Shown piece after piece: positions 23,378 to 47,187 of a stretch of 64,000 nt of DNA. The notes under the pieces are model-generated. The model was not told the DNA's origin. It searched no databases and worked only from the letters and a program-made list of their open reading frames with translations. The translations under genes were made by a program, and so were the position numbers. Where the stretch lies: NCBI RefSeq assembly GCF_044324875.1, contig NZ_CP172185.1. One strand, 5' to 3'. Position 1 is the first letter of the stretch. Every line of letters begins with the position of its first letter. This DNA is from Escherichia coli (lineage in GTDB: Bacteria; Pseudomonadota; Gammaproteobacteria; Enterobacterales; Enterobacteriaceae).

Positions 23378-23406
23378 AAGGCGACTGATGAGTCGCCTTT
23401 TTTTTG
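23378..23406 (+). terminator. rph-pyrE intercistronic attenuator/terminator hairpin
   Basis: AAGGCGACT-GATG-AGTCGCCTT stem-loop followed by run of 8 T, just after rph stop and 32 nt before pyrE ATG. Confidence 0.65.
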
Positions 23407-23437
23407 TCTGTAGAAAAGTAAGATGAGGAGCGAAGGC

Positions 23438-24079: not shown

Positions 24080-24086
24080 AGAAACT

Positions 24087-24110
24087 CGCCGGATGAAAAG
24101 TCATCCGGCG
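24087..24110. terminator. palindromic hairpin between convergent pyrE and slmA (REP-like, bidirectional terminator candidate)
   Basis: CGCCGGATGA-AAAG-TCATCCGGCG perfect 10-bp stem. Confidence 0.45.
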
Positions 24111-24115
24111 TCATA

Positions 24116-24712
24116 TTACTGCAACTGTGCGGCAATTAGCGGCCAGCGGGCGTCAAAATCATCCGTCGGGCGGTATTTAAACTCGCTGCGGACAAAGCGT
24201 GACAGCATACCTTCACAGAAGGCCAGGATCTGGCTTGCCAGCAGGGTTTCATCGGTGGTGTAACCTTCACCCTCACGCATTCTCTTTTCGCGCAATACCT
24301 GACGCAACTGCGCTTCAATACGCTCGAACAGCTGGTTGATGCGCCCTTGCAGGCGATCCTGTTCAAACATTAGTGCATGACCAGTGAGGATGCGAGTCAG
24401 GCCAGGATTACGCTCACCAAAACCGAGAAGCAGCAACACAATCAGACGCAGGCGCGCTGTGGTGTCCTTCTCATCTTTCAGAATCAGATTGATGCGAGTA
24501 ATCAGGCTATCTTCGATAAACTCAATCAGGCTATCGAACATGCGGGTCTTACTGGGGAAGTGGCGATACAGTGCCGCTTCGGAAACGCCGACAGAGGCGG
24601 CCAGTTTTGCCGTCGTGATACGTTGGCTTCCATCGCTGGATTCCAGCATCAGCGCCAGAGACTGAAGTATTTCCTCGCGACGGTTCCTTTTCGCAGTTTG
24701 TTTTTCTGCCAT
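24116..24712 (-). CDS. slmA: nucleoid occlusion factor SlmA (TetR family)
   Basis: ORF track 24116-24754; start at [16 protein letters not shown] giving 198 aa. Confidence 0.85.
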
Positions 24713-24818
24713 GTTACAAAATACCCCTGAAAATAAGCACTTGCCAGGCGGCACCCACGCTATGACCGCAAACGAAATGTTTGCGGCTATGTTATGACGT
24801 TATTCGGATGCGTATGTG

Positions 24819-25274
24819 TTACTGACGACCAGAGTGACCAAAGCCGCCTTCACCGCGGTCGGTGGCGTCGAAATCTTCCACCAGATTAAATTCAGCCTGT
24901 ACTACCGGAACAAAAATCATCTGGGCGATGCGTTCACCAGGTTGAATGGTGAAGCTGTCCTGACCACGGTTCCACACGGAAATCATTAACTGGCCCTGAT
25001 AGTCGGAATCGATCAATCCTACCAGGTTACCAAGCACGATACCGTGCTTATGTCCCAATCCGGAGCGCGGCAGCATCATTGCCGCCAGTGAAGGATCGGC
25101 AATATGAATCGCCAGCCCGGTCGGAACCAGCGTAGTGTCACCCGGAGCCAGTTCTACGGCGTCGTCGAGACAGGCACGCAGGTCAAGTCCGGCAGAGCCA
25201 GAGGTGGCATAAGTCGGGAGCGGAAATTCCTTCCCAACGCGCGGGTCCAGAATCTTAACGTCGATTTTTTTCAT
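24819..25274 (-). CDS. dut: dUTP diphosphatase
   Basis: ORF track 24819-25277 (two tandem ATG); [14 protein letters not shown]. Confidence 0.9.
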
Positions 25275-26475
25275 CATAACGGGTCACGATCTCGTCGAGT
25301 AATAATTGGCCAAGGAGCTCTTTGCGCTCAAGCGGTAAGACTTTATCTCCGTCCTGCCAGAAAAGGTGTAATGCGTTGTTGTCGCTGTTAAATCCTTGAG
25401 TTGGCTGGGAAACATCGTTCGCGCAGATCAGATCAAGGTTTTTACGGATACGTTTTTGCCGGGCGTATTCTTCCACATTATTTGTTTCGGCGGCAAATCC
25501 AACGACGTAGGGTCGATGGTCTTTTAGTGCGGCAACGCCTGCGACGATATCGGGGTTTTTAACCATTTTTATTGTTAATTCATCACCCTGCGTGGCCTGC
25601 TTTTTGATTTTTTCTGGGGCCACGGTAGCTGCGCGATAATCCGCCACGGCGGCGCAACCGATAAAAATATTTTGCTGCTGTACAGAAGCATTCACGGCGG
25701 CTTCCATTTCCAGCGCGGTCATCACATCAACACGTTTAACAAACGGTGGCGTCGGTAGTGAAACTGGACCTGATACCAGCGTGACGTTCGCGCCACGACG
25801 GGCAGCAGCGGCGGCGATAGCAAAACCCATCTTGCCGGAGCTGTGATTAGAGATATAACGCACCGGATCGAGCGGTTCACGCGTCGGGCCGGCGGTAATC
25901 ATAATGTTCAGATGTTTCAGGTCGTTGACGGGCGAAAAATGCGCTACTGCCATATCCACAATGGTTAACGGATCGAGCATTCGCCCAGGACCGATATCAC
26001 CACAAGCCTGACTGCCACTGTCTGGCCCCCAGATGAGCAAACCACGGGAAGCAAGCACCTCTAAATTATGCTGCGTGGCAGCGGCACGGTACATCTGCTG
26101 GTTCATGGCGGGGAGCACGGCTACAGGCGCAGGTGTAGCCAGACAAATCGTCGATACCAGGTCATTCGCCATTCCGGCAGCAACACGGGCAATCAAATCT
26201 GCCGTGGCAGGGGCGAGAATCACTAAATCAGCCCATTTACCCAGCTCAATATGGCCCATAGCGGCTTCGGCTGCCGGGTCCAGCAAACTGTCGGAAACGG
26301 GATAACCAGAAACCGCCTGCAAGCTAAGTGGGGTGATAAAGGCTTTTGCCGCTTCGGTCATGGCTACGCGGACGTCGGCCCCGCGATCGCGCAAACGACG
26401 CACCAGTTCAGGGGTTTTATAGGCAGCAATACCGCCGCTGACGCCGAGAACGATTTTTTTACCGGCCAGGCTCAT
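25255..26475 (-). CDS. coaBC: bifunctional phosphopantothenoylcysteine decarboxylase / phosphopantothenate-cysteine ligase
   Basis: ORF track 25255-26547; start at [20 protein letters not shown] giving 406 aa; 3' end overlaps dut start by 20 nt. Confidence 0.9.
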
Positions 26476-26640
26476 GATGATTTTTCCTGTTTGGTGACAC
26501 CAGAAGTTGGCGATTTTATCACAATACTTTTGTTGTCGTGCCTTCACCTGAGAATCACTTTGCGAGGCGCTTTCCAGGATTGAAAACTGGCCGTCGATTT
26601 AACGGAACGGCTATGACAGGATGCGAGCACCACAAAGGAG

Positions 26641-27315
26641 GTGAAGGTGAAAAACAATTCACAGCTGTTGATGCCGCGCGAAAAAATGCTGAAGTTTGGT
26701 ATTAGCGCCTTAACGGATGTCGAGCTGCTGGCGCTATTTCTGCGTACCGGAACGCGCGGTAAAGATGTATTAACCCTGGCAAAAGAGATGCTGGAGAATT
26801 TCGGCTCTCTTTATGGCTTGTTAACCTCTGAATATGAACAATTTAGTGGCGTTCATGGAATTGGCGTGGCGAAATTTGCCCAGTTAAAGGGGATTGCTGA
26901 ACTGGCGCGGCGTTACTACAACGTGCGGATGCGTGAAGAAAGCCCTTTACTCAGCCCGGAGATGACGAGGGAATTTTTACAAAGCCAGCTCACGGGTGAG
27001 GAGCGGGAGATCTTTATGGTGATCTTTCTCGACTCCCAACACCGGGTTATAACGCATAGCCGCCTTTTTTCCGGCACGCTAAACCATGTTGAAGTCCATC
27101 CTCGGGAAATTATCCGCGAAGCGATAAAAATAAATGCCTCGGCGCTGATCCTTGCACATAATCACCCTTCGGGTTGTGCTGAACCCAGTAAAGCGGATAA
27201 ACTCATTACTGAACGGATAATAAAGAGTTGTCAGTTCATGGATTTACGCGTGCTCGACCATATCGTGATTGGGCGTGGAGAGTATGTTTCTTTTGCCGAA
27301 CGCGGCTGGATTTAA
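26641..27315 (+). CDS. yicR: UPF0758/RadC-like JAB-domain protein YicR
   Basis: 224-aa ORF (GTG start in track) with C-terminal HNHPSG JAMM-like motif; exact start uncertain. Confidence 0.8.
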
Positions 27316-27510
27316 CCCGCTATGCGCGATCCTTCGGGATCTTTGTCTGTTCGGGACTTGAGCACATCGCTGAGTCAGCGTATACTACGCCACCTTTGAG
27401 AATCTCGGGTTTGGCATTTGGGCCTGGCAATCGAGAGTTCACATAGAACTGCGATGACCGGGCTGTAAAGCCTGACGAGGCGCCAATACCCCATACGAAG
27501 CTCGAGCTAA

Positions 27511-27768
<258 letters not shown>

Positions 27769-30666: not shown

Positions 30667-31017
30667 AGTAAATAGCTGACTTATGGATGTGCTGGGGATT
30701 CTATGTATTTAGCTGTGGCTTTACCATTACTTTTCCCGTTTTTGACTTAAATAGCAATTTAGCCGCCAATTCTTGCTGAACATCTATACTTTTTTTGTAT
30801 TTTTATGCGTTTCATTGATTTCTGCAGTACGTGCAGGAAGGAATCGCAGAGCAACAGTGAAAGAATATGGTTGCTAATGATTTTATTTGATTGATTTCTT
30901 TATTGAAAATCAACAATGTGCTTAAAAATCATTCGGGTCGGATTGCCGCGAAAGAAGTGATACACTAGCGCGTCAATATCAGTGCGGTATCAGTATTCAG
31001 GTAGCTGTTGAGCCTGG

Positions 31018-31029
31018 GGCGGTAGCGTG
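31018..31029 (+). promoter_or_regulatory. ops element (RfaH recruitment site, part of JUMPstart) in waaQ operon leader
   Basis: exact GGCGGTAGCGTG in the waaA-waaQ divergent region, about 50 nt upstream of waaQ start. Confidence 0.7.
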
Positions 31030-31078
31030 CTTTTTCTGCTTCACCTTAATCGGATAATCTCAACAAAAAGAGTTACTT

Positions 31079-32137
31079 GTGGATAAGCCATTTCGAAGAA
31101 TTTTGCTCATTAAGATGCGTTTTCATGGGGATATGTTATTAACTACTCCCGTCATTAGTTCGCTGAAAAAAAATTACCCTGACGCAAAAATCGATGTGCT
31201 GCTTTATCAGGACACCATCCCGATCCTATCTGAAAATCCAGAGATTAACGCGCTCTACGGCATAAAAAATAAAAAAGCAAAAGCCGCAGAAAAAATTGCC
31301 AACTTTTTTCATCTCATCAAGGTATTACGTGCCAATAAGTATGACCTTATCGTTAATCTTACCGAACAATGGATGGTTGCTATACTGGTTCGCTTATTAA
31401 ATGCCCGTGTGAAAATTTCCCAGGATTATCATCATCGGCAGTCTGCTTTTTGGCGTAATAGTTTCACTCATTTGGTGCCGTTGCAGGGTGGAAATGTGGT
31501 GGAAAGTAACTTATCCGTGCTGACACCATTGGGACTTGATTCGTTGGTGAAGCAGACAACCATGAGTTACCCGCCTGCAAGCTGGAAACGTATGCGTCGC
31601 GAACTTGATCACGCTGGTGTTGGACAAAATTATGTGGTTATCCAACCTACGGCGCGGCAAATCTTCAAATGTTGGGACAACGCCAAGTTTTCCGCTGTGA
31701 TTGATGCCTTACATGCTCGTGGTTATGAAGTCGTTCTGACGTCCGGCCCAGATAAAGACGATCTGGCCTGCGTCAATGAAATTGCGCAGGGATGCCAGAC
31801 GCCACCAGTAACGGCGCTGGCTGGAAAGGTGACCTTCCCGGAACTTGGTGCGTTAATCGATCATGCGCAGCTGTTTATTGGCGTTGATTCCGCACCGGCG
31901 CATATTGCCGCTGCAGTTAATACGCCGCTGATATCGCTGTTTGGTGCGACAGACCATATTTTCTGGCGTCCATGGTCAAATAACATGATTCAATTCTGGG
32001 CGGGAGATTACCGGGAAATGCCAACGCGCGATCAGCGTGACCGAAATGAGATGTATCTTTCGGTTATTCCGGCGGCAGATGTCATTGCTGCTGTCGATAA
32101 ATTACTGCCCTCCTCCACGACAGGTACGTCGTTATGA
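31079..32137 (+). CDS. waaQ: LPS heptosyltransferase III
   Basis: 352-aa GT9-like ORF (GTG start in track), first gene after ops element; precise start uncertain. Confidence 0.8.
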   Translation: MDKPFRRILLIKMRFHGDMLLTTPVISSLKKNYPDAKIDVLLYQDTIPILSENPEINALYGIKNKKAKAAEKIANFFHLIKVLRANKYDLIVNLTEQWMVAILVRLLNARVKISQDYHHRQSAFWRNSFTHLVPLQGGNVVESNLSVLTPLGLDSLVKQTTMSYPPASWKRMRRELDHAGVGQNYVVIQPTARQIFKCWDNAKFSAVIDALHARGYEVVLTSGPDKDDLACVNEIAQGCQTPPVTALAGKVTFPELGALIDHAQLFIGVDSAPAHIAAAVNTPLISLFGATDHIFWRPWSNNMIQFWAGDYREMPTRDQRDRNEMYLSVIPAADVIAAVDKLLPSSTTGTSL

Positions 32138-33258
32138 TCGTTGCTTTTTGTTTATATAAATATTTTCCCTTTGGCGGTTTGCAGCGCGATTTCATGCGTA
32201 TTGCTCAGACAGTCGCCGCTCGAGGTCATCATGTTCGGGTTTATACCCAGTCGTGGGAAGGCGAATGCCCTGATGTATTTGAACTGATCAAAGTGCCGGT
32301 TAAATCGCATACCAATCACGGGCGCAATGCGGAGTATTTTGCCTGGGTGCAAAAACATTTACGCGAACATCCCGTCGATAGAGTCGTTGGATTCAACAAA
32401 ATGCCGGGGCTGGACGTTTATTATGCCGCTGATGTTTGTTATGCCGAGAAAGTAGCGCAGGAGAAAGGCTTTTTCTATCGCCTGACGTCACGTTATCGCC
32501 ATTATGCCGCCTTTGAGCGAGCAACCTTTGAACAGGGTAAGCCGACACAGCTGCTGATGCTGACAGATAAGCAAATCGCCGATTTCCAGAAACATTATCA
32601 GACTGAAGCGGAGCGTTTTCATATTCTGCCACCGGGGATTTACCCTGATCGTAAATATAGCCAGCAGCCAGCCAATAGCCGTGAAATCTTCCGTAAGAAG
32701 AATGGAATAACCGAACAGCAATATTTATTGTTGCAGGTCGGTTCAGACTTCACGCGTAAAGGTGTCGATCGCTCCATTGAAGCACTTGCTTCGTTACCGG
32801 ATTCGCTGCGCCACAACACATTGCTATATGTTGTTGGGCAGGATAAACCGCGAAAATTTGAGGCGCTGGCAGAAAAACGCGGCGTGCGCAGTAATGTTCA
32901 CTTCTTCTCGGGGCGCAATGATGTCTCGGAATTAATGGCGGCGGCGGATTTATTACTGCATCCTGCCTACCAGGAAGCGGCGGGAATTGTGCTGCTGGAA
33001 GCGATTACTGCAGGATTACCGGTACTAACAACTGCCGTTTGTGGCTATGCGCATTATATTGTCGACGCCAATTGCGGCGAGGCTATTGCTGAGCCATTCC
33101 GCCAGGAAACATTGAATGAGATTTTACGCAAAGCGTTAACGCAATTTTCATTGCGCCAGGCCTGGGCGGAAAATGCGCGACATTATGCTGATACACAAGA
33201 TTTGTACAGTCTGCCAGAGAAAGCGGCGGATATCATAACGGGTGGTCTGGATGGTTGA
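32134..33258 (+). CDS. waaG: LPS core glucosyltransferase I
   Basis: 374-aa ORF recognised as WaaG (GT4). Confidence 0.85.
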
Positions 33259-34048
33259 ACTTAAAGAGCCGTTTGCCACGTTATGGCGCGGAAAAGATCC
33301 TTTTGAGGAAGTTAAAACTTTGCAGGGTGAGGTATTTCGTGAACTGGAAACTCGCCGTACTCTGCGCTTTGAAATGGCGGGCAAAAGCTATTTTCTCAAA
33401 TGGCATCGCGGCACGACCCTGAAAGAGATAATCAAAAATTTACTCTCATTGCGGATGCCAGTATTAGGCGCAGACCGCGAATGGAATGCGATTCATCGAC
33501 TGCGGGATGTCGGCGTTGATACTATGTATGGGGTGGCATTCGGCGAAAAAGGCATTAATCCGCTGACCAGAACCTCGTTTATTATAACCGAAGATCTGAC
33601 ACCAACCATCAGTCTGGAAGATTACTGTGCTGACTGGGCGACTAACCCTCCAGATGTTCGCGTAAAGCGTATGCTTATTAAGCGTGTCGCGATGATGGTG
33701 CGCGATATGCATGCTGCGGGCATTAACCACCGTGACTGTTATATCTGTCATTTCCTGCTGCACTTGCCTTTTTCCGGTAAGGAAGAGGAGTTAAAAATTT
33801 CGGTAATTGACCTGCACCGGGCGCAGCTTCGCACGCGCGTTCCACGTCGTTGGCGCGATAAAGATCTTATTGGGCTTTATTTTTCTTCGATGAATATTGG
33901 CCTGACTCAGCGGGATATCTGGCGGTTTATGAAAGTGTATTTTGCCGCCCCGCTTAAAGACATTCTCAAGCAGGAACAAGGACTGCTGTCGCAAGCAGAA
34001 GCAAAAGCCACAAAAATCAGGGAAAGAACGATTAGAAAATCGTTGTAA
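33251..34048 (+). CDS. waaP: LPS core heptose(I) kinase
   Basis: ORF track 33242-34048; start at ATG 33251 ([14 protein letters not shown]) giving 265 aa; overlaps waaG end. Confidence 0.85.
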
Positions 34049-34090
34049 CCCGTAACTTATTTTTGCCAAAATTTTGGATACAGAATAAAT

Positions 34091-35098
34091 ATGTCTCAAC
34101 TCAATGATAGTGACATCATCCTTTTTGAGTATAACTTTCATTATCAAAATATAAGATCTAAAAATACTCTTGATATCGCATTTGGTATTGACAGAAATTT
34201 TCTTTTTGGATGTGGTGTAGCCATCGCATCTATTCTATTAAACAATAGCGAAATCTCTTGTGAATTTCATGTTTTCACAGATTATATCAGTGATAAAGAC
34301 AAGTTATATTTTTCCGATTTAGCAAAACAATATAATTCAAGAATTAATATTTATGTTATCAATTGTGATAAGCTGAAGTCATTACCAAGCACGAAAAACT
34401 GGACTTACGCTACATATTTTCGATTTATAATTGCAGATTATTTCTATAATAAACATGAAAAAATACTATACCTTGATGCAGATATTGCTTGCAAGGGTAG
34501 TATTAAAGAACTCTTAGATTATCAATTCTCTACTAATGAAATTGCCGCAGTTGTAGCTGAAAGAGATGTTGAATGGTGGCAGAATCGAGCCTCGGTATTA
34601 ACTACACCACAATTAGCTTCTGGATATTTCAATGCTGGTTTTTTGCTGATAAATATTGATGAGTGGAATCTAAATAACATTTCGTCAAAAGCTATTGAAA
34701 TGTTGCGTGACCCAGATTGGGTAAGTAAAATCACCCACCTTGATCAAGATGTACTGAATGTATTATTGAATGGTAAAGTGAAGTTTATTTCGGGGAAATA
34801 TAATACCCGATATAGTATTAACTATGAATTAAAAGACAAAGTTGATAATCCAGTCAATGATGACACCGTGTTTATACACTATGTGGGACCTACAAAACCC
34901 TGGCATGAGTGGGCTGATTATCCGGTGTCACGTAGTTTTTTGATCGCCAAAGCAGCTTCTCCGTGGTGTAAAGAAGATTTACTTAAACCTGTGAATAGCA
35001 ATCAGTATCGGTATTGTGCAAAACATAAATTTAAACAAAAGCATTATATGGCAGGCATTTTTAATTATTTAAAGTATTATAAAGAAAAATGCTTCTAA
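34091..35098 (+). CDS. waaI: LPS outer-core glycosyltransferase, GT8 family (WaaI-like)
   Basis: 335-aa AT-rich ORF with GT8 DxD motif (YLDADIACKG); position after waaP as in R3-type loci; symbol assigned by gene order, not verified. Confidence 0.55.
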   Translation: MSQLNDSDIILFEYNFHYQNIRSKNTLDIAFGIDRNFLFGCGVAIASILLNNSEISCEFHVFTDYISDKDKLYFSDLAKQYNSRINIYVINCDKLKSLPSTKNWTYATYFRFIIADYFYNKHEKILYLDADIACKGSIKELLDYQFSTNEIAAVVAERDVEWWQNRASVLTTPQLASGYFNAGFLLINIDEWNLNNISSKAIEMLRDPDWVSKITHLDQDVLNVLLNGKVKFISGKYNTRYSINYELKDKVDNPVNDDTVFIHYVGPTKPWHEWADYPVSRSFLIAKAASPWCKEDLLKPVNSNQYRYCAKHKFKQKHYMAGIFNYLKYYKEKCF

Positions 35099-35123
35099 AG
35101 ATTTAAGGTTAAAATAATTCATT

Positions 35124-35831
35124 ATGATATATAATAAAACGATAAATGGGTTGAAAGTTTTCATAAAAGATAATGATCCCTTTTATGAGCAAGTGCTGAA
35201 TGACTTTTTAACTTGCAGGGTTAAAACATTAAAAGTTTTTCGTTCTATTGATGATACTAAAGTCATTCTTATTGACACTGCTCGTGGACCTCTTGTACTT
35301 AAAGTTTATGCGCCAAAGCATAAAATGATCGAACGTTTCTTAAAATCTTGCGTAAAAAAAGATTATTATGAAAATTTAATTTATCAAACCGATCGGGTAC
35401 GTGGTGAAGGCATTCAATCAATTAATGACTATTTTTTGCTTGCTGAACGTAAAACATTAAATTTCGCGCATTATTATATTATGCTCATTGAGTATATTGA
35501 AGGTGTCGGGTTAAATGAGTATTTGGAAATTTCTGAAGATCTGAAGGAACAATTATCAGAATCGATAAAAGAGTTGCATCAGCATGGAATGGTGTCTGGC
35601 GATCCTCATAAAGGAAATTTTATAGTATCCGAAAAAGGTTTAAGACTAATTGACCTTTCAGGTAAAAAAACAACCGCAGTTTTAAAAGCAAAAGATCGCA
35701 TTGATCTTGAACGGCACTATAATATAAAAAATGAATTGAAAGACTTTGGCTATACATATCTCATATTCAAAAAGAAAATTAAAAAAGCAATCAGGGATGT
35801 AAAAGTAAAACTAGGATTGAAGAGCAAATAA
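35124..35831 (+). CDS. waaY: LPS core heptose(II) kinase WaaY-like
   Basis: 235-aa kinase-like ORF between two GT8 genes. Confidence 0.65.
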   Translation: MIYNKTINGLKVFIKDNDPFYEQVLNDFLTCRVKTLKVFRSIDDTKVILIDTARGPLVLKVYAPKHKMIERFLKSCVKKDYYENLIYQTDRVRGEGIQSINDYFLLAERKTLNFAHYYIMLIEYIEGVGLNEYLEISEDLKEQLSESIKELHQHGMVSGDPHKGNFIVSEKGLRLIDLSGKKTTAVLKAKDRIDLERHYNIKNELKDFGYTYLIFKKKIKKAIRDVKVKLGLKSK

Positions 35832-35855
35832 TGATTATGATGAAGGGTAATTAAA

Positions 35856-36869
35856 TTGGATTTTAAACATCTTACTCAATTTAAAGATATAATTGAACTG
35901 GACAAGCGCCCCGTTAAACTTGATGAACGGGAAACGTTTAATGTCTCATGGGGTATTGATGAGAACTACCAGGTTGGGGCTGCGATTTCAATTGCTTCAA
36001 TTCTTGAAAATAATAAACAAAACAAATTTACCTTTCACATAATCGCTGATTACTTAGACAAAGAGTATATTGAATTATTATCACAATTAGCAACGAAGTA
36101 TCAAACAGTAATTAAATTATATCATATTGATTCTGAGCCATTGAAGGCGCTACCTCAATCAAATATCTGGCCAGTATCTATTTATTATCGTTTGCTTTCA
36201 TTTGATTATTTTTCTGCGCGATTGGATTCATTATTATATCTTGATGCTGATATCGTCTGTAAGGGTTCATTGAACGAGTTAATAGCATTAGAGTTTAAAG
36301 ATGAATATGGGGCTGTGGTAATTGATGTAGATGCTATGCAAAGTAAAAGCGCTGAGCGTTTATGTAATGAGGATTTTAACGGTAGCTATTTTAACTCTGG
36401 TGTAATGTATATTAATTTACGGGAATGGTTACAACAAAGACTAACGGAGAAATTTTTTGATCTATTATCAGATGAGTCAATTATCAAAAAATTAAAGTAT
36501 CCGGATCAAGATATTTTAAACTTAATGTTTTTACATCATGCTAAAATATTACCGAGAAAATATAATTGTATTTATACTATAAAGTCAGAATTTGAAGAAA
36601 AAAATAGTGAATATTACACCCAGTTTATTAATGATGAAACTGTCTTCATACATTATACTGGTGTAACTAAGCCATGGCATGATTGGGCGGACTACGCATC
36701 TGCAGATTATTTTCGTAATATTTATAATATATCTCCATGGAGAAATATACCTTATAAAAAAGCTGTTAAAAAACATGAGTACAAAGAAAAATATAAACAC
36801 TTGCTTTACCAGAAAAAATTTCTCAATGGTGTTTTTACAGCAATTAAATATAATGTTATGAAAGGTTAA
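35856..36869 (+). CDS. waaJ: LPS outer-core glycosyltransferase, GT8 family (WaaJ-like)
   Basis: 337-aa AT-rich ORF with YLDADIVCKG motif; symbol by order. Confidence 0.55.
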   Translation: MDFKHLTQFKDIIELDKRPVKLDERETFNVSWGIDENYQVGAAISIASILENNKQNKFTFHIIADYLDKEYIELLSQLATKYQTVIKLYHIDSEPLKALPQSNIWPVSIYYRLLSFDYFSARLDSLLYLDADIVCKGSLNELIALEFKDEYGAVVIDVDAMQSKSAERLCNEDFNGSYFNSGVMYINLREWLQQRLTEKFFDLLSDESIIKKLKYPDQDILNLMFLHHAKILPRKYNCIYTIKSEFEEKNSEYYTQFINDETVFIHYTGVTKPWHDWADYASADYFRNIYNISPWRNIPYKKAVKKHEYKEKYKHLLYQKKFLNGVFTAIKYNVMKG

Positions 36870-36877
36870 TATTCGAG

Positions 36878-38020
36878 ATGGTTGATAAAATAATATTTAC
36901 AGTTACTCCTATTTTTTCAATTCCTCCCCGCGGAGCGGCCGCTGTTGAAACGTGGATGTATCAGGTTGCTCAGCGTACCAATTTCCCAAATCGCATTGTT
37001 TGTATCAAGAATCCAGGATACTCAAATTACACCTTTGTTAATGATAATTGTAGTATTCATAGGGTTGGATTCAGTCGCATATATAAGCGGTTATTTCAAA
37101 AATGGACAAGACTTGATCCTCTACCATATTCACAGAGAATATTGAATATTGCCCATGATTTTCCTATAACGAAAGAAAGTGTTATTGTAGTTCATAATAG
37201 CATGAAGCTATACACTCAAATTCGTAAGCGAGCTCCTCAGGCAAGAGTGGTTATTCATATGCATAATGCATTTGAACCAAAATTGCTTGAGCAAAATGTT
37301 AAAATGATAGTGCCTAGTTTATACTTGAAAAAGTATTACCAATCTTATTTAGCAAATGCAGATATTGAGATTGTACCAAATGGAATTGATTTAGAAACCT
37401 ATCAATCTACTTTTCAGCCGATCACTAGAAGCGAACTTAATATCTCCCCTGAAGAGAAAATTATTTTTTATGCTGGGCGTATCGTCCCTGACAAAGGCAT
37501 ATTACTGTTGATGCAATCATTCGAAAAATTGGCCGTTGCTCACAAAAATTTAAAATTAGTTGTGATTGGTGATTATACAGAAATGAGTAAAAGTGACAAA
37601 GGTGCATATCAACACAATGTCAGGGAAATTGCAAAACGTTTGAAGGATCGTTGCATTATGTTAGGAAGCATACCGCCTGAAAAGATGCATTGTTATTACC
37701 CACTGGCAGATTTAGTTGTCATTCCTTCCCAGTTCCAGGAACCATTTTGCATGGTGGCAATTGAAGCTATGGGGGCTGGTAAGCCTGTTTTAGTGAGTAC
37801 GCGTGGGGGGATGACGGAATTTGTCAAAGAAAATACTACGGGATTCCATTTAAAAGAACCTATGACTGCAGACTCCATAAGCAGCGATATTTTAAAAACG
37901 TTAGCGAATCCTGAATTAACAGCAGTTGCAAAGCAAGGTCAGGATTTTGTGTTTGATCACTACAGTTGGGATGGCGTAACTCAAAGATTCGAAGAGGTCA
38001 TTCATAATTGGTTTGAATAA
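36878..38020 (+). CDS. waaD: LPS outer-core glycosyltransferase, GT4-like (WaaD-like)
   Basis: 380-aa ORF with EX7E motif (EPFCMVAIE) of retaining GT-B glycosyltransferases; last gene of waaQ operon before convergent waaL; symbol tentative. Confidence 0.45.
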   Translation: MVDKIIFTVTPIFSIPPRGAAAVETWMYQVAQRTNFPNRIVCIKNPGYSNYTFVNDNCSIHRVGFSRIYKRLFQKWTRLDPLPYSQRILNIAHDFPITKESVIVVHNSMKLYTQIRKRAPQARVVIHMHNAFEPKLLEQNVKMIVPSLYLKKYYQSYLANADIEIVPNGIDLETYQSTFQPITRSELNISPEEKIIFYAGRIVPDKGILLLMQSFEKLAVAHKNLKLVVIGDYTEMSKSDKGAYQHNVREIAKRLKDRCIMLGSIPPEKMHCYYPLADLVVIPSQFQEPFCMVAIEAMGAGKPVLVSTRGGMTEFVKENTTGFHLKEPMTADSISSDILKTLANPELTAVAKQGQDFVFDHYSWDGVTQRFEEVIHNWFE

Positions 38021-38022
38021 AT

Positions 38023-38049
38023 AAAAAGGCCGCATTATGCAGCCTTTTT
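38023..38049. terminator. bidirectional terminator hairpin between convergent waaD-like gene and waaL
   Basis: AAAAAGGC-c-GCATtATGC-a-GCCTTTTT palindrome with A-run on one side and T-run on the other. Confidence 0.5.
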
Positions 38050-38056
38050 TATTTTT

Positions 38057-39265
38057 TTACTTGTTTTTCATTGCTAATAATAAGCCGGCGTAAACGCCTA
38101 ATAAATTTGGTTCAATTTGTTCTACGTTTCCACGGATAACAAAATAACCTATAAAAGATAGTAAGATTATATAATATGCATTATATGGTGAGCGGTTTTT
38201 ATTCTGGACGCCATTTTTTATACACTCTTTCAATATTGCGCAGTATAGCATCATAAGACTTATCAGCCCTAATAAACCAGTGCCAAACCAGATGAATAGC
38301 GCAAAATTATGTGGCCCTATCGATTGTCTAAAGGTCCATTCTGGATAATCAACGACACGTTTATTATAGACATCTTTATATGCAACGTTACCGTAACCGT
38401 AACCAATAACAGGATTTTCTAATATTAGATCGAGTGCGCTGCCTTGAGTACCATTTGCATAGCGATAAGAACTATTAGTTTGTTGAAGTTTATACGTTAG
38501 ATTTGCGGTCATCTCCTTATGTGTGAAAATAACCGATAATGCAATGATGGAAACCATTACTCCTACTAATAGTAACTTCCATTGTTTAAACATCAGAATC
38601 CATATTAATCCAATGACTAACACGGAAAGCCAGGCTCCTCTGGATAAAGTTCCTAATATCAGAAAAATAAAAATAACGCTTAGAACCGCAAAAGAAATGC
38701 GGTATTTTGCTGATTTGATAAGCCAGAGATTTAACAATGCAGGAAATAAAAAGACCATCGAGTCAGAAATGCTACGGTGTCTATAATCTGCAAATGGCAT
38801 TACCCCTTGTTGATAGTCCTTATAATAGGCAATCAATTCAGAAAAACAACGTAAGCCCAACGCACTTATAAATGAGAAGAAAACGATTTTTTCGACATCT
38901 TCTCTTTTCTCGTCTCTCAATATGACCGGTATTGCTATTGTGCATAGTAAAGTATTTTCAATGATAGCTTTGAAAATTTCCTTCATGCTAGCACCTGCAT
39001 CTGGGGATTGAAGAAGTGATAGCAATGCAGCAATAGTTAATATGGCAACACTACCAAAAAGACATGTTTTAAATAGTGAAAGATAGTGTTTTGGCCGTTT
39101 GCAGAGATAGACGATTGTCGTTATTGTCATAAGAATAACAATAAGATGTTTATACCTTGTAATCCCACCCAAAAAATAGGTGGTAATGAATAAGAATACG
39201 AGAGCTCTGTTCCAGTACGCTATCCAGTTTTTTTTCTCGAGAGAGAAAAATAATGTTGAGGTCAT
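38057..39265 (-). CDS. waaL: O-antigen ligase
   Basis: 402-aa multi-pass membrane ORF downstream of waaC; start overlaps waaC stop (ATGA). Confidence 0.75.
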   Translation of the reverse strand: MTSTLFFSLEKKNWIAYWNRALVFLFITTYFLGGITRYKHLIVILMTITTIVYLCKRPKHYLSLFKTCLFGSVAILTIAALLSLLQSPDAGASMKEIFKAIIENTLLCTIAIPVILRDEKREDVEKIVFFSFISALGLRCFSELIAYYKDYQQGVMPFADYRHRSISDSMVFLFPALLNLWLIKSAKYRISFAVLSVIFIFLILGTLSRGAWLSVLVIGLIWILMFKQWKLLLVGVMVSIIALSVIFTHKEMTANLTYKLQQTNSSYRYANGTQGSALDLILENPVIGYGYGNVAYKDVYNKRVVDYPEWTFRQSIGPHNFALFIWFGTGLLGLISLMMLYCAILKECIKNGVQNKNRSPYNAYYIILLSFIGYFVIRGNVEQIEPNLLGVYAGLLLAMKNK

Positions 39266-40254
39266 CTTATCTCCGATGTCAACTTATTGGTTATTATTTC
39301 AAGATTTAAATTTTGAAAAACGGTTTGAGCTGGCAAATCTGCAAGAGACATACTTGTAGAACGACACTCTACTTGATTCTTCCCATACCCGCCAATTAAT
39401 CCCGGATCGGTAGGTCCATAAACCGTGATATTGGGTCTATCCAGTGCCGCCGTTAAATGGCTTAACCCCGTATCCACCGACACTACAAATTTAGCCCCGG
39501 CCAGCACGCGGGCAACGCCTTCCAGACTCATCTTCGGCAATACTTCAACATAAGCAAATCCTTCCGCCAGTCGTTTCGCCCGTTCTTCCTCATGCGGCGC
39601 GCCCCACGGAAGTTTAATCCGTATTCCTGAATCTGCCAGTAAACCAATCAAATCTCGCCAGTGTTCTTCCGGCCAGTGTTTATCATCACGGGTCGTCGCA
39701 TGAAGAAATACGGCATATTCGCCAGCATCTGTAGGCAGGTTCGTCAGGAAATGCTGTGCAATAGCATAATCGCCCTGGGTTTGCGGTTTGCTATAGCCCA
39801 GACTTTTGGCAAACAGTTCGCGGGTGCGTTCTACGGCGTGCTGCTGTTTCGCAATATGATGCTTACGATTGTAAAACAAGCTTGCCAGTGGTTCGCGAGC
39901 GGTTTGCCAGTCCATTCCATGCTTTACGCCATGTGCCAGACGCGTCACCAGCGCCGCGCTTTTTACCAGCCCCTGAGCGTCGATAACTGCGTCATAGTTC
40001 TCTGCTTGTAGCGCTTCACGAAACGCTTTCCGTTCAGCTTTTATGGGGGCCGAGAACCAGGCTTTACGCCAGCGACGTATTGCCACAGGAATAACTCGCT
40101 CAACAGCGGCGTGCCAGGAAGGAATTTGTGCGAACCCTTCTTCCACCACCCAGTCAAACTTAATCCCTGGGATTGCCTGCTGGGCATCAGTGAGTGCGGG
40201 CAACGTATGGAGAACATCGCCCATCGACGATGTTTTAACGATCAAAACCCGCAT
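39262..40254 (-). CDS. waaC: LPS heptosyltransferase I
   Basis: MRVLIVKTSSMGDVLHTLPALTDA N-terminus; GT9. Confidence 0.85.
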   Translation of the reverse strand: MRVLIVKTSSMGDVLHTLPALTDAQQAIPGIKFDWVVEEGFAQIPSWHAAVERVIPVAIRRWRKAWFSAPIKAERKAFREALQAENYDAVIDAQGLVKSAALVTRLAHGVKHGMDWQTAREPLASLFYNRKHHIAKQQHAVERTRELFAKSLGYSKPQTQGDYAIAQHFLTNLPTDAGEYAVFLHATTRDDKHWPEEHWRDLIGLLADSGIRIKLPWGAPHEEERAKRLAEGFAYVEVLPKMSLEGVARVLAGAKFVVSVDTGLSHLTAALDRPNITVYGPTDPGLIGGYGKNQVECRSTSMSLADLPAQTVFQNLNLEIITNKLTSEIR

Positions 40255-40257
40255 CCG

Positions 40258-41304
40258 TCAGGCTTCCTCTTGTAACAATAGCGCGTTGAGTTCTTCCAGT
40301 GCGCGCTGGGGAGTAATGTCGATCAAGCTCTGGTGATAACCCTCCGCAGCGTCACCTTTACGCACTTTGTGATAGCCGGTAATCAGGCGGATCACGCGTG
40401 CTTTATGGGATAGCGGCGGTGTGAAGTCCGGGCTACTCGGACCATACAGGGCAACCAGCGGACGATTGAGCGCCGCCGCAACGTGCATCAGGCCAGAATC
40501 GTTAGTGACAATGGCTTTACAGGCTGCAATCAGGATAACCGCTTGATCAAGCTGTGTTTCCCCCGCCAGGTTCCGGCACCATGCCTGCTGCTCGGTATTC
40601 AAAGCGGCAAGAATCTCATTGCCCGCTTCATGATCTTTCGCCGAGCCAAACAGAACCACCTGATAACCTTCATCAATCAGCTGCTTTGCCAGTTCCGCAT
40701 AGTGGTAGTGTGGCCAGCGTTTTGCCGGACCAAACTCCGCACCCGGGCAAAAGCCAATCATCGGACGTTCTGATGAAAGCGAAAATTGATTACAGGTATA
40801 TGATTTTTCACCTTCGCTCACCTGCAACTGCGGCCATAACAATGGCTGCGGCAGATCTTGTGCTGTACGCATAATGCCTTTGTCATAGGCCAGCGCGACA
40901 TAGCGTTCCACCATTAGCGGCCAGGCTTCTTTATCGAGCACGCGTACATCGTTAAGTAAACCGTAGCGCATCTCGCCGCGCCAGCCGGTGCGATGAGGAA
41001 TACCCGCGAAGAAAGGCACTAATGCGGACTTGAAGGAGTTGGGTAAGACGTAGGCGCGGTCGTAGCGCTTTTCACGCAGACTATGACCCAGTTTGCGGCG
41101 TTCGCCGATTTCCAGCGCTCCGTGACCGAGAGGCATAGGGATAGCTTCGTTAACTTCCGGCATCCGCGATAATAATGGACGGCACCATGCCGGTGCCATC
41201 ACGTCGATTATCGCCTGGGGATAGCGCGCCTGGAGCGTGCGATAGAGACTTTGCGACATCATCATGTCGCCAACCCAAGACGGGCCGATCACCAGTATTT
41301 TCAT
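40258..41304 (-). CDS. waaF: LPS heptosyltransferase II
   Basis: 348-aa ORF MKILVIGPSWVGDMMMSQSLYRTL. Confidence 0.9.
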   Translation of the reverse strand: MKILVIGPSWVGDMMMSQSLYRTLQARYPQAIIDVMAPAWCRPLLSRMPEVNEAIPMPLGHGALEIGERRKLGHSLREKRYDRAYVLPNSFKSALVPFFAGIPHRTGWRGEMRYGLLNDVRVLDKEAWPLMVERYVALAYDKGIMRTAQDLPQPLLWPQLQVSEGEKSYTCNQFSLSSERPMIGFCPGAEFGPAKRWPHYHYAELAKQLIDEGYQVVLFGSAKDHEAGNEILAALNTEQQAWCRNLAGETQLDQAVILIAACKAIVTNDSGLMHVAAALNRPLVALYGPSSPDFTPPLSHKARVIRLITGYHKVRKGDAAEGYHQSLIDITPQRALEELNALLLQEEA

Positions 41305-41313
41305 GCAGAGCTC

Positions 41314-42246
41314 TTATGCGTCGCGATTCAGCCAGGCCATGTATTCCGTTACACCTTCAGCAACGGTTTTGAACGGTTTGTCGTAACCCGCCGCGCGCAG
41401 ATTTGTCAGATCAGCCTGAGTGAACGCCTGATAGCGGCCTTTCAGTTTATCCGGGAACGGAATGTATTCGATCTGCCCTTTCTTGTGATAAGCAAGCGTA
41501 GCATCTGCTACTGCCTGGAAGGATTCTGCACGACCGGTGCCGAGGTTGAAGATACCGGAAACGCCATTTTCCAGGAACCACAGGTTTACATCTGCTACGT
41601 CGCCCACATAGACGAAGTCACGTTTGAAGTTCTCGCTACCTTCAAACAGCTTCGGTGATTCACCGTTGTTAAGCTGAGTGTTGAGATGGAAAGCGACGCT
41701 CGCCATGCTACCTTTATGGCCTTCACGCGGTCCATAAACGTTGAAATAGCGGAAGCCAACAATCTGCGAGTTCGCTTCAGGCAGGATTTGGCGAACATAT
41801 TCATCAAACAGGAATTTTGAGTAACCGTAGACATTCAACGGTTTTTCATATTCGCGGGATTCAATAAAGTCGGAGGTGCGACCGCCGTAAGTGGCTGCAG
41901 AAGAAGCGTACAGGAACGGGATTTCGCGCTCAAGGCAGTAGTGCAGCAGCTCCTTGGAGTATTGATAGTTGTTATCCATCATATATTTGCCGTCCCACTC
42001 GGTGGTGGAAGAGCACGCGCCTTCGTGGAAAATCGCTTCGACATCGCCGAACTCTTCGCCAGCCATAATCTGGATCAGGAAGTCTTCCTTATCCATATAG
42101 TCCGCGATATCCAGATCCACCAGGTTCACAAACTTGGTGCCGTCTTTCAGGTTGTCCACCACCAGAATATCGGTGATGCCTTTGTCATTCAGGGCTTTAA
42201 CGATGTTGCTGCCGATAAAGCCCGCGCCGCCGGTAACGATGATCAT
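41314..42246 (-). CDS. hldD: ADP-L-glycero-D-manno-heptose 6-epimerase
   Basis: 310-aa [23 protein letters not shown] (NAD-binding Rossmann). Confidence 0.9.
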
Positions 42247-42534
42247 AACTGTAACCTTCGAATTATGGAGTCAGAGACAATCTCAGACACGAATGTCTGT
42301 AATCATACCATCACATCCGAATCCCTTCAGCCCTTTACATAGAGATGCAAGGATGCTAATTGCAACAAACTAGTTTGGGTTTTAGCCAGTCCTTCATGGC
42401 GGATGTTGGATTTGCACGTGAATAGTGCTTTAGTATCAATATTCCGATGTATGATAAATAACTGAAACATTTGAATGGATAATATACAGTATACATTCTG
42501 TTAATATTTATGATATAATTCTTTTTTTATATTA

Positions 42535-43407
42535 ATGGTCTTATTAGTAATGAAATCATCCACCACAATTATCACTGCATATTTTGACATTGGTAGAGGG
42601 GATTGGACTGCTAATAAAGGGTTCCGTGAAAAACTAGCTCGTTCAGTTGATGTTTATTTTAGTTACTTTGAGCGTCTGGCCGCACTTGAAAATGAGATGA
42701 TTATTTTCACTTCTCCCGATTTGAAATCAAGGGTTGAAGCGATTCGCAACGGAAAACCAACAACGGTTATCGTTATCGATATAAAAAAGAAATTTAGATA
42801 TATCAGAAGTCGTATCGAAAAAATTCAAAAAGATGAGTCGTTTACAAATAGACTTGAGCCTCGACAATTAAAAAACCCAGAGTACTGGTCACCAGAGTAT
42901 GTTTTGGTATGTAACCTTAAGGCCTATTTTGTAAATAAAGCTATCAACATGGGCTTAGTGAAAACGCCTCTTGTTGCGTGGATAGATTTTGGCTATTGCC
43001 GTAAGCCAAATGTAACTCGAGGATTGAAAATTTGGGATTTCCCATTTGATGAAAATAAGATGCATCTTTTCACTATAAAAAAAGGGCTTACTGTCACATC
43101 TCAACAACAGGCTTTTGATTTCATGATTGGCAATCATGTATATATTATTGGTGGCGCAATTGTTGGTTCACAGCATAAATGGAAAGAATTCTATAAATTA
43201 GTTCTGGAAAGTCAAAAAATAACCCTAAACAATAACATTGTGGACGATGACCAGGGCATCTTTGTCATGTGCTATTACAAACGTTCCGATCTCTTCAACC
43301 TAAACTATCTGGGGAGAGGAAAATGGTTCGATTTGTTTCGCTGCTTCAGGAGTAACACTTTAGGGGCAAAAATGCAGGCGCTGAGAATTTTCCTTTCAAG
43401 AAAATAG
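42535..43407 (+). CDS. htrL: HtrL/YibB-family protein
   Basis: 290-aa AT-rich ORF divergent from hldD; alternative start possible at 42550 (MKSSTTIITAYF). Confidence 0.7.
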   Translation: MVLLVMKSSTTIITAYFDIGRGDWTANKGFREKLARSVDVYFSYFERLAALENEMIIFTSPDLKSRVEAIRNGKPTTVIVIDIKKKFRYIRSRIEKIQKDESFTNRLEPRQLKNPEYWSPEYVLVCNLKAYFVNKAINMGLVKTPLVAWIDFGYCRKPNVTRGLKIWDFPFDENKMHLFTIKKGLTVTSQQQAFDFMIGNHVYIIGGAIVGSQHKWKEFYKLVLESQKITLNNNIVDDDQGIFVMCYYKRSDLFNLNYLGRGKWFDLFRCFRSNTLGAKMQALRIFLSRK

Positions 43408-43454
43408 GTTTCCCTCCATTAGTGGGTAGCGTTTTGATGCCAACTGAGATAGGA

Positions 43455-43486
43455 AAAAATGATGCTTTGGCATCATTTTTTCTTTT
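43455..43486 (+). terminator. htrL intrinsic terminator
   Basis: ATGATGC-TTTG-GCATCAT hairpin followed by T-rich run TTTTTTCTTTTT. Confidence 0.5.
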
Positions 43487-43682
43487 TATATCAATGCAGT
43501 AAAATCACTCATCATTATGCCCAGCCAAAACTGTACAGTTTTTCTACTATCTATAGGTGTTGAGAGACATCAAGATTCACGTTATTTATCCTGAATTTTG
43601 CAGAAGTGTTAACGCGTCATCTCGTCGCAACCTATAAGTTTGGGTAATATGTGCTGGAATTTGCCCTGTCTGGAGAATCGCA

Positions 43683-44879
43683 ATGCGTGGAGAATTTTAT
43701 CAGCAGTTAACCAACGATCTGGAAACCGCACGGGCGGAAGGGTTGTTTAAAGAAGAGCGCATTATTACGTCTGCGCAGCAAGCAGATATCACTGTGGCTG
43801 ATGGAAGCCACGTCATTAACTTTTGTGCCAATAACTATCTCGGACTGGCGAATCATCCGGATCTGATTGCGGCGGCAAAGGCGGGAATGGATTCTCACGG
43901 TTTCGGCATGGCTTCGGTGCGTTTTATTTGCGGCACTCAGGACAGCCATAAAGAGCTTGAACAAAAACTGGCGGCCTTCCTGGGGATGGAAGATGCGATT
44001 CTCTACTCTTCCTGCTTTGATGCTAACGGTGGCCTGTTTGAAACGCTGTTGGGCGCGGAAGACGCCATTATCTCCGACGCACTGAACCACGCGTCTATTA
44101 TTGATGGTGTGCGTCTGTGCAAAGCTAAACGCTATCGTTATGCCAACAACGATATGCAGGAGCTGGAAGCACGTCTGAAAGAAGCGCGTGAAGCCGGTGC
44201 GCGTCATGTGCTGATTGCCACCGATGGTGTGTTCTCGATGGACGGCGTGATTGCCAATCTGAAAGGCGTTTGCGATCTGGCAGATAAATATGATGCCCTG
44301 GTGATGGTAGATGACTCCCACGCGGTAGGTTTTGTCGGTGAAAACGGTCGTGGTTCCCATGAATACTGCGATGTGATGGGCCGGGTCGATATTATCACCG
44401 GCACGCTCGGTAAAGCGCTGGGCGGGGCTTCTGGTGGTTATACCGCGGCGCGCAAAGAAGTGGTTGAGTGGCTGCGCCAGCGTTCTCGTCCGTATCTGTT
44501 CTCCAACTCGCTGGCACCGGCCATTGTTGCCGCTTCCATCAAAGTGCTGGAGATGGTTGAAGCGGGTAGCGAGCTGCGTGACCGTCTCTGGGCGAACACG
44601 CGTCAGTTCCGTGAGCAAATGTCGGCGGCGGGCTTTACCCTAGCGGGAGCCGATCACGCCATTATTCCGGTCATGCTTGGTGATGCGGTAGTAGCGCAGA
44701 AATTTGCCCGTGAGCTGCAAAAAGAGGGCATTTACGTCACCGGTTTCTTCTATCCGGTCGTTCCGAAAGGTCAGGCGCGTATTCGTACCCAGATGTCTGC
44801 GGCGCATACCCCTGAGCAAATTACGCGTGCAGTAGAAGCATTCACGCGTATTGGTAAACAACTGGGCGTTATCGCCTGA
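43683..44879 (+). CDS. kbl: 2-amino-3-ketobutyrate CoA ligase (glycine C-acetyltransferase)
   Basis: 398-aa PLP-enzyme [23 protein letters not shown]. Confidence 0.9.
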
Positions 44880-46152: not shown

Positions 46153-47187
46153 ATGATGAACAGCACCAATAAACTTAGTGTTATTATCCCGTTATATAAT
46201 GCGGGTGATGATTTCCGCACTTGTATGGAATCTTTAATTACGCAAACCTGGACTGCTCTGGAAATCATTATTATTAACGATGGTTCAACGGATAATTCTG
46301 TTGAAATAGCAAAGCATTACGCAGAAAACTATCCGCACGTTCGTTTGTTGCATCAGGCGAATGCTGGCGCATCGGTGGCGCGTAATCGTGGGATCGAGGT
46401 GGCGACGGGCAAATATGTCGCTTTTGTCGATGCTGATGATGAGGTGTATCCCACCATGTACGAAACGCTGATGACCATGGCGTTAGAGGACGACCTCGAC
46501 GTGGCGCAGTGCAACGCTGACTGGTGTTTTCGTGAAACGGGAGAAACCTGGCAATCCATCCCCACCGATCGCCTTCGCTCAACCGGCGTATTAACCGGCC
46601 CGGATTGGTTGCGGATGGGGCTTTCTTCCCGCCGTTGGACTCACGTTGTCTGGATGGGGGTTTATCGCCGCGATGTTATTGTTAAAAATAACATTAAATT
46701 TATTGCCGGATTACATCATCAGGATATTGTCTGGACAACAGAATTTATGTTTAATGCGCTGCGTGCGCGATATACCGAGCAATCGTTATATAAATATTAT
46801 CTGCATAATACGTCAGTGAGTCGGTTGAATAGACAAGGGAATAAAAACCTTAATTATCAACGTCACTATATTAAGATTACCCGCCTGCTAGAGAAATTAA
46901 ATCGAAATTATGCCGACAAAATTACGATTTATCCGGAATTTCATCAGCAAATAACTTACGAAGCATTGCGTGTTTGCCATGCGGTGCGCAAAGAGCCGGA
47001 TATTATTACCCGCCAACGGATGATTGCCGAGATATTTACTTCCGGTATGTATAAGCGCCTGATTACCAATGTGCGCAGCGTGAAGGTGGGTTATCAGGCG
47101 TTACTGTGGTCTTTCCGCTTATGGCAATGGCGCGACAAAACGCGGTCGCACCATCGCATTACGCGTAGCGCCTTTAATTTGCGCTAG
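46153..47187 (+). CDS. waaH: GT2-family glycosyltransferase WaaH (YibD)
   Basis: 344-aa ORF with N-terminal GT2 signature (LSVIIPLYNAG...DDE). Confidence 0.75.
   Translation: MMNSTNKLSVIIPLYNAGDDFRTCMESLITQTWTALEIIIINDGSTDNSVEIAKHYAENYPHVRLLHQANAGASVARNRGIEVATGKYVAFVDADDEVYPTMYETLMTMALEDDLDVAQCNADWCFRETGETWQSIPTDRLRSTGVLTGPDWLRMGLSSRRWTHVVWMGVYRRDVIVKNNIKFIAGLHHQDIVWTTEFMFNALRARYTEQSLYKYYLHNTSVSRLNRQGNKNLNYQRHYIKITRLLEKLNRNYADKITIYPEFHQQITYEALRVCHAVRKEPDIITRQRMIAEIFTSGMYKRLITNVRSVKVGYQALLWSFRLWQWRDKTRSHHRITRSAFNLR

Follow-up and report, generated by a model that had tools for sequence, protein, structure and literature searches.

The 64,000-nucleotide stretch of Escherichia coli DNA analysed here (contig NZ_CP172185.1 of assembly GCF_044324875.1), referred to below as the window, carries the waa locus for biosynthesis of the lipopolysaccharide (LPS) core. 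This study concerns a block of low GC content within that locus, which holds the outer-core genes and the gene for the O-antigen ligase. The outer core and the ligase decide which O antigens can be attached and affect recognition by phages, protists and immune receptors. R3, the core type to which the block is assigned below, is the core type of O157:H7 and of most enterohaemorrhagic E. coli strains.

Genes and limits of the outer-core block

The block spans 5325 bp (34049–39373, GC 0.334), its limits being the homology breakpoints with other core types. It is preceded by waaQ-waaG-waaP (31079–34048, plus strand, GC 0.476), the conserved left flank and putative left recombination arm. Four genes follow on the plus strand: waaO (waaI), assigned to the LPS alpha-1,3 hexosyltransferases of glycosyltransferase family GT8 (34091–35098, GC 0.32; NF011718 616 bits, cut-off 461); waaY, a heptose II kinase gene by profile assignment (35124–35831, GC 0.31); a waaJ-like gene for a GT8 family alpha-1,2 glucosyltransferase (35856–36869, GC 0.30); and waaD, a GT4 family member belonging to the RfaK-type N-acetylglucosamine (GlcNAc) transferase family (36878–38020, GC 0.37; NF012028 766 bits, cut-off 618). 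On the opposite strand lies waaL for the R3-specific O-antigen ligase (38057–39265, GC 0.35). The convergent stop codons of waaD and waaL are separated by a 36-bp gap containing a terminator-like hairpin (38023–38049; A5, a 12-bp stem and a T run), which is probably a bidirectional terminator. The block ends with a core-type-specific 3′ tail of waaC (39262–39373, minus strand, GC 0.34 vs 0.53 in the remaining waaC). The rest of waaC together with waaF and hldD (39374–42294, minus strand, GC about 0.52) forms the conserved right flank and putative right recombination arm. By their arrangement, waaO-waaY-waaJ-waaD would be the distal part of the waaQ operon and waaL the distal part of the hldD-waaF-waaC operon, and the cassette would set the outer sugars of the LPS core along with the matching ligase.

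Several lines of evidence identify the block with the R3 core type. Over this region E. coli 042 shows 100% identity, and the RefSeq annotation of that strain gives these gene names there; the Pfam and NCBIfam scores of the cassette proteins exceeded the cut-offs in agreement with the RefSeq names. Within the cassette, strain 042 differs only in the T run, whose length changes by 1 bp at 38051. The gene order is that of R3, with waaQ-G-P-O(I)-Y-J-D on one strand and a convergent waaL at the end of hldD-waaF-waaC. An in silico polymerase chain reaction with the R3 typing primers for waaD and waaJ found both sites with 0 mismatches, R3-R at 35940–35962 (plus strand) in the waaJ-like gene and R3-F at 36941–36960 (minus strand) inside waaD. 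The resulting product of 1021 bp has the published size of the R3 typing amplicon (PMC13293308). The DNA of the block shares 98.2% identity with O157:H7 and O111:H8. WaaL, which was used for core typing in PMC8715443, shares 98% identity with P0001, the large E. coli cluster of RfaL, as expected of an R3-type allele, and no match to it was found in the sampled E. coli loci of other core types. Compared with the E. coli R3 waa locus of O157:H7, O111 and Shigella flexneri (Heinrichs/Whitfield nomenclature), gene content and order are identical and nothing essential is different; the copy in the window is the phylogroup-D-type R3 allele, as in 042, and lies 1.7% from the O157/B1-type allele. The block at 34049–39373 is accordingly best read as the R3 allele of the outer-core/ligase slot of the E. 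coli waa locus, as part of an explanation that we consider probable as a whole.

Alignment with loci of other core types gave about 98% identity up to the waaP stop codon at 34048 (33944 for the K-12-type locus). Identity resumed at 39374, so that the last 112 bp of waaC fall on the variable side. Between these breakpoints weak DNA similarity to other core types (64–68%) was detected only in waaO and waaY. The slot holds alternative cassettes with little or no common sequence between the conserved arms waaQGP and waaC-F-hldD, and the cassette is passed on or exchanged whole. No integrase, insertion sequence (IS) or tRNA feature was present in the annotation of the locus, and a search for direct and inverted repeats over 33500–44000 returned only short AT-rich chance matches; a mobile element as the explanation was rejected because of the lack of mobility genes in the annotation and of meaningful repeats in this interval. 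The cassette resembles a classical genomic or pathogenicity island in its atypical GC content, its atypical codon usage and its patchy occurrence among strains. Unlike such islands, it comes without an integrase, a tRNA target, direct repeats or IS, and it takes the place of another allele instead of being inserted.

Upstream of waaQ, the divergent waaA/waaQ control region (30667–31078) is AT-rich, with a GC content of 0.38. Its JUMPStart-like leader contains GGCGGTAGCGTG at 31018–31029 on the plus strand, 50 bp upstream of the waaQ start (31079), corresponding to the ops element GGCGGTAGnnTG in a transcribed operon leader. The ops element is the recruitment site for the anti-terminator RfaH, and the AT-rich waa operon has been reported to be silenced by H-NS and Rho and to need RfaH for full read-through, this control having been described in K-12 and CFT073 (PMC5449661, PMC9765446). 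RfaH loaded at the ops element at 31018–31029 would let transcription reach the end of the operon despite H-NS and Rho. O-antigen (rfb) clusters are likewise AT-rich allelic cassettes that are swapped by recombination in conserved flanks; they are preceded by JUMPStart/ops leaders and are targets of H-NS. The same has been reported for capsule clusters (PMC9765446). The waa slot differs in having about five alleles in E. coli, compared with more than 180 O-antigen types, and in sitting inside an otherwise conserved core-biosynthesis locus.

Base composition of the block

The initial annotation had described a sharp drop in GC content over 34050–39300, with long A/T runs and proteins rich in Lys, Asn, Ile and Tyr, in contrast to the flanking waaQGP and waaCF genes, and had taken it as consistent with horizontal acquisition. 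The compositional part of this description was confirmed throughout. The GC content of 34050–39300 was 33.3%, compared with 51.5% for the remainder of the window. Relative to 964 segments of the same length taken elsewhere (mean 0.5205, sd 0.0197, minimum 0.462) this corresponds to a z of −9.5, and the lowest-GC sliding segment of this length started at 34051. In steps of 300 bp, GC fell from 0.46–0.50 to 0.28 across 33900–34350 and rose from 0.35 to 0.49–0.52 across 39150–39600; both steps fall where homology to the other core types breaks off (34048 and 39374). GC contents range from 0.30 to 0.37 in the five cassette genes, and the flanks have 0.476 (waaQGP) and 0.519 (waaC-waaF-hldD). Among the flanking genes, waaQGP show a GC content at third codon positions (GC3) of 0.46–0.48, and waaQGP are likewise intermediate (0.46–0.53) in Salmonella, Citrobacter, Cedecea and Silvania. 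The region of htrL at 42250–43410, for which the same AT-rich character had been claimed, has a GC content of 0.362.

Codon usage is shifted in the same direction. At the three codon positions, GC was 0.42/0.30/0.28 in the cassette genes and 0.61/0.40/0.56 in the 43 other genes of the window. Rare codons made up 11.4% of the cassette compared with 3.5% in the other genes, and the codon adaptation index, calculated with weights after Sharp & Li 1987, was 0.17–0.22 compared with a mean of 0.38. The dinucleotide signature distance of the block was 88, compared with 39 ± 14 for other segments. A/T runs of at least six nucleotides occur at 4.1 per kb in the block and at 0.95 per kb otherwise; the 22 runs observed in the block exceed the expectation from composition (9.6 ± 3.2 in composition-matched shuffles). 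Promoter-like sites were not enriched in the AT-rich block (30 vs 37 ± 6 expected from composition).

A trough of this kind might arise solely from the demand of membrane proteins and glycosyltransferases for Lys, Asn, Ile, Tyr and Phe. These residues account for 35% of the cassette proteins compared with 21% in the other genes of the window, and about 48% of the GC deficit can be put down to amino-acid composition. The remaining 52% or so lies in synonymous codon choice. The same proteins encoded with the codon usage of the flanks would have a GC content of 0.44, not 0.34. The glycosyltransferase genes waaG, waaC, waaF and waaQ of the same locus have GC contents of 0.47–0.54, and AT-richness extends to the intergenic parts and to the 3′ tail of waaC. 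Amino-acid composition as the sole cause was ruled out by the synonymous share of the deficit and the GC3 of 0.28 vs 0.56, and we give this explanation practically no credence.

The trough itself is not new. Leclercq et al. 2021 (PMC8715443) described a GC content of about 51% at waaDFC and waaA that declines slightly at waaQGP and markedly in the central variable genes, found remnants of phages, IS and transposons to be absent, and interpreted the pattern as horizontal transfer. The trough, the intermediate waaQGP and the lack of mobile remnants were all reproduced in the window; both the trough and the horizontal reading were thus already known.

Distribution, exchange and relatives of the cassette

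The R3 cassette was found in 1363 of 5426 complete E. coli genomes (25%), in every case at least 80% covered and always on the chromosome. The right flank waaC-F-hldD was present in 5424 of these genomes. The left flank waaQGP was matched by megablast in only 4474 of the 5426, and a more divergent waaQGP allele class therefore exists. The best match to the window among the complete genomes was 99.3% identical over 24.9 kb, and the strain of the window itself was not among them.

Comparison of strains pointed to exchange of the cassette. From about 33.6 to 47.0 kb the window is nearly identical to 042 and O17 strains (5 differences in approximately 13.4 kb), with about 1.3% divergence on either side. 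This tract of about 13 kb looks like a recent recombination that carried the R3 cassette, yibB, kbl-tdh and waaH. Between O157:H7 and O111:H8 the cassettes differ by 0.17% and the flanks by 0.88%. The R3 cassette of strain 23CRST028 (9042–14215 of its locus) is a mosaic with respect to the window, waaO-Y-J differing by 3.8–5.4% and waaD-waaL by 0.25–0.9%, so that recombination happens within the cassette too; its yibB gene is 5.2% divergent, and the indel segment as a whole 7.3%. Given the tract shared with 042, the near-identical cassettes and the 23CRST028 mosaic, together with the lack of integrase, IS, tRNA and repeats, we infer that replacement of the cassette probably occurred by homologous recombination in the conserved arms.

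Two observations concern the wider surroundings of the locus in these strains. Between yicC and dinD, strain 042 has an integrase/prophage-like island of 20 kb (8136–27751 of its locus), which the window lacks (junction at 21666–21668). The gene waaH (yibD) at 46153–47187, encoding another LPS glycosyltransferase, has a below-average GC content of 0.458 and is frameshifted in the examined O157:H7 strain.

Related loci in Citrobacter, Cedecea, Silvania, Enterobacter sp. Ag1 and Salmonella are syntenic with the window. The nearest WaaL relatives outside E. coli were those of Cedecea (71% identity), Citrobacter (65–68%), Silvania and Enterobacter sp. Ag1 (64%), followed by Salmonella (54%); WaaL homologues of Morganellaceae were only 37–42% identical. 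Comparison of protein and DNA identity tables showed that the cassette proteins are 64–79% identical to those of Citrobacter, Cedecea, Silvania and Enterobacter sp. Ag1, 45–60% identical to those of Salmonella, and 41–56% identical to, or unmatched in, other E. coli core types. For the flanking proteins the ranking is reversed, with Salmonella and Citrobacter nearest and Cedecea most distant. Likewise, the cassette shows the same DNA identity, 71%, to Citrobacter as to Cedecea, compared with 78–85% and 72–82%, respectively, in the flanks. Because of this opposite ranking the history of the cassette appears to be decoupled from that of the chromosome, and its gene relationships seem to conflict with those of the flanks. 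R3-like as well as Salmonella-like cassettes occur in each of Escherichia and Cedecea. The R3 arrangement is complete in Citrobacter sp. R56, waaY and yibB included, and the DNA of this locus is colinear with the window across both boundaries. These syntenic R3-like cassettes (about 71% identical in DNA) are contrary to the report that the central region has no homologue outside Escherichia and Shigella (PMC8715443). The waa (rfa) region of Salmonella enterica uses the same slot between waaP and waaC, with homologous GT8 genes, waaY, a GlcNAc transferase gene and waaL and a trough of 0.34–0.41. It differs in its extra waaB and waaZ, its other gene order (waaB-I-J-Y-Z-K, waaL) and the lower protein identity given above, and, unlike the window, it has no yibB at this site. 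Two short contigs, filed under a Bacillota and a Flavihumibacter metagenome-assembled genome, are 90–92% identical to the waa DNA of Escherichia whittamii and E. coli E69 and are almost certainly mis-binned Escherichia contigs.

Beyond the right flank lies an AT-rich presence/absence segment of 1284 bp (42295–43578, GC 0.36), which is replaced by 61 bp in strains without it. It contains yibB/htrL (42550–43407, plus strand) of the HtrL_YibB family, followed by a terminator-like hairpin (43451–43484). Over its full length YibB scored 421 bits with PF09612 (cut-off 24.1) and 547 bits with NF008462 (cut-off 342). Distant family members are named WlaTC/HtrL family glycosyltransferase by NCBI, and the family also occurs in an outer-core locus of Acinetobacter (PMC4172580). 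A sequence search of solved structures with YibB gave no significant match. The segment is present in 36% of complete E. coli genomes. It accompanies R3 without exception, yibB being found in 1363 of 1363 R3 genomes and in 595 of 4063 non-R3 genomes. In other species, yibB occupies the hldD|kbl site in five of seven R3-like loci (Citrobacter, Cedecea, Enterobacter sp. Ag1 and Escherichia sp. MOD1) and in none of the Salmonella-like loci checked. Part of the association of yibB with R3 may come from their tight physical linkage and from clonal structure. On the haplotype of the R3 cassette, yibB/htrL forms an additional, second AT-rich accessory segment.

Elsewhere in the window, a sugar-utilisation cluster at 188–7131 comprises genes for a regulator with PRD and helix-turn-helix (HTH) domains, the EIIA, EIIB and EIIC components of a phosphotransferase system, two class II aldolases, a ROK kinase and D-lyxose isomerase. 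It sits where strain 042 has yicI-yicJ, and its first 2.6 kb have only 41% GC. An IS3-family insertion at 54524–55957, between cysE and trmL, is absent from 042; it consists of orfA with an HTH domain (54567–55097) and orfB with an rve integrase core (55202–55924).

Age and origin of the low GC content

The alternative occupants of the slot are as AT-rich as the R3 cassette. In the other E. coli cassettes that were sampled (R1/R4-like and K-12-type), GC is 0.33–0.35. Syntenic cassettes of other Enterobacteriaceae have 0.36–0.41 compared with 0.52–0.57 in their flanks, and in Providencia, a host of lower GC, the cassette has 0.32 compared with 0.44. Across loci outside Xenorhabdus, the window included, GC3 of the cassette was lower than that of the flanks in 18 of 18, by 0.11–0.29. 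As the trough is common to the slot in other cassettes and genera, low GC neither dates an import nor gives its source. Low GC is, on the strength of these comparisons, an old property of the slot rather than a date stamp for the cassette.

The age of the R3 lineage was also evident from its divergence. Among deep R3 lineages the cassettes differ by 1.5–3.5% and the flanks by 1.7–3.1%, and in a non-coli Escherichia species the cassette is 95.2% identical to the window and the flanks 94.6–95.8%. This speaks against a recent import, by which a block from an AT-rich organism would have entered E. coli and would have yet to drift to its composition, even though such an import would fit the strongly atypical GC and codon usage at all three codon positions, the large dinucleotide distance and the patchy strain distribution. 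No AT-rich donor was found, the best WaaL relatives all being in Enterobacteriaceae whose flanking genes have 52–57% GC. The equally AT-rich alternative cassettes and those of six other genera, and the failure to find mobility genes or flanking repeats at the locus, point the same way. Substitutions between the window and O157:H7, polarised with 23CRST028 (which is not an outgroup in waaD-waaL), showed no net gain of GC in the cassette, with 43 GC-to-AT vs 35 AT-to-GC changes compared with 166 vs 100 in the flanks, although these small counts give the test low power. By the Muto-Osawa/Lawrence-Ochman regression lines, codon positions 1, 2 and 3 would imply a donor GC of about 24, 11 and 36%; as these values are inconsistent, they were not used for dating, and at most they fit a partly host-adapted or protein-specific composition. 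A recent import is very unlikely.

The initial proposal of horizontal acquisition was thus upheld in one part and not in the other. A history separate from that of the flanks is supported by the presence in 25% of genomes, the sharp breakpoints and the reversed ranking of protein identities, and htrL/yibB, too, is a segment that only 36% of genomes carry. The step from low GC to an import of this particular cassette was not supported, given the equally AT-rich alternative and syntenic cassettes, the copies that have diverged like the flanks, and the failure to find mobility genes, flanking repeats or an AT-rich donor. Of the usual signs of horizontal transfer, atypical composition and codon usage, patchy distribution with conserved flanks and conflicting relationships were observed; mobility signatures, a donor of matching composition and recent arrival were not.

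At the other extreme, there may have been no transfer at all: the slot would be vertically inherited, fast-evolving and AT-rich in place, and its cassettes would be ancient balanced alleles sorted among lineages. AT-biased mutation would then go uncorrected at weak expression, divergent alleles would rarely recombine and so escape GC-biased gene conversion, and selection for H-NS and RfaH control may contribute. The trough in every host checked but Xenorhabdus, the synonymous half of the GC deficit and the occurrence of R3-like alongside Salmonella-like cassettes within Escherichia and within Cedecea all agree with such a history. The substitution flux is roughly balanced, and the small polarised counts imply an equilibrium GC of 0.26–0.33 for the cassette, near the present 0.31–0.36; this test is again of low power (43 vs 35, p about 0.07 against flank rates). 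Regression of cassette GC3 on host flank GC3 gave a slope of 0.15 (not significant) for 30 loci with Xenorhabdus, and a slope of 0.52 (r = 0.76) without Xenorhabdus for 18 loci that are not phylogenetically independent, suggesting that the cassette partly tracks its host. As the loci are not independent, the regression cannot tell maintenance in place apart from a shared mobile pool of alleles. Strict vertical descent is hard to reconcile with the near-identical cassettes within E. coli where the flanks differ 5–10 times more, with the 13-kb tract held in common with 042, and with a cassette identity to other genera that does not scale with species distance. We regard it as unlikely, though clearly less so than a recent import.

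The explanation we favour, and consider probable, is that the block is the R3 allele of the slot, swapped as a unit via the flanking arms and belonging to an old low-GC lineage. Homologous recombination in the arms would have exchanged such cassettes among lineages of E. coli and, on a longer time scale, also from one genus of Enterobacteriaceae to another; the R3 allele lineage would be old, and the low GC would have come with it. Our best guess for the composition itself is an old pool of AT-rich alleles, in whose weakly expressed and rapidly evolving genes AT-biased mutation keeps GC low. Several points weigh against this explanation. GC3 of the waaL homologue of Xenorhabdus is about that of its flanks, and hence the trough is not universal in Enterobacterales. 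The flat identity of 71–75% to other genera would fit transfer between genera and also ancient allelic lineages sorted among them. The recombination mechanism is inferred from tract patterns, and the dependence on RfaH and H-NS assumed for this strain is that reported for other strains. No ultimate source of the AT-richness was identified; every relative belongs to Enterobacterales, and there may or may not have been an ancient AT-rich donor.

To the earlier description of the locus our data add that the trough is common to syntenic cassettes of at least six other genera and cannot be used as a clock or a source label, that R3-like cassettes exist outside Escherichia and Shigella, and that yibB is completely linked to R3 in E. 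coli. More tentatively, and with somewhat less than even confidence, the R3 cassette and yibB may together represent an ancient haplotype that crosses genera (Escherichia, Citrobacter, Cedecea, Enterobacter sp. Ag1, and Silvania without yibB), the AT-richness being a stable, maintained state of the slot with a balanced flux that partly tracks host GC, and not foreign DNA that has failed to drift. If this is true, a low GC content would not count as a sign that a polysaccharide locus came from a foreign source, and YibB would act as an accessory glycosyltransferase linked to cores of the R3 type.

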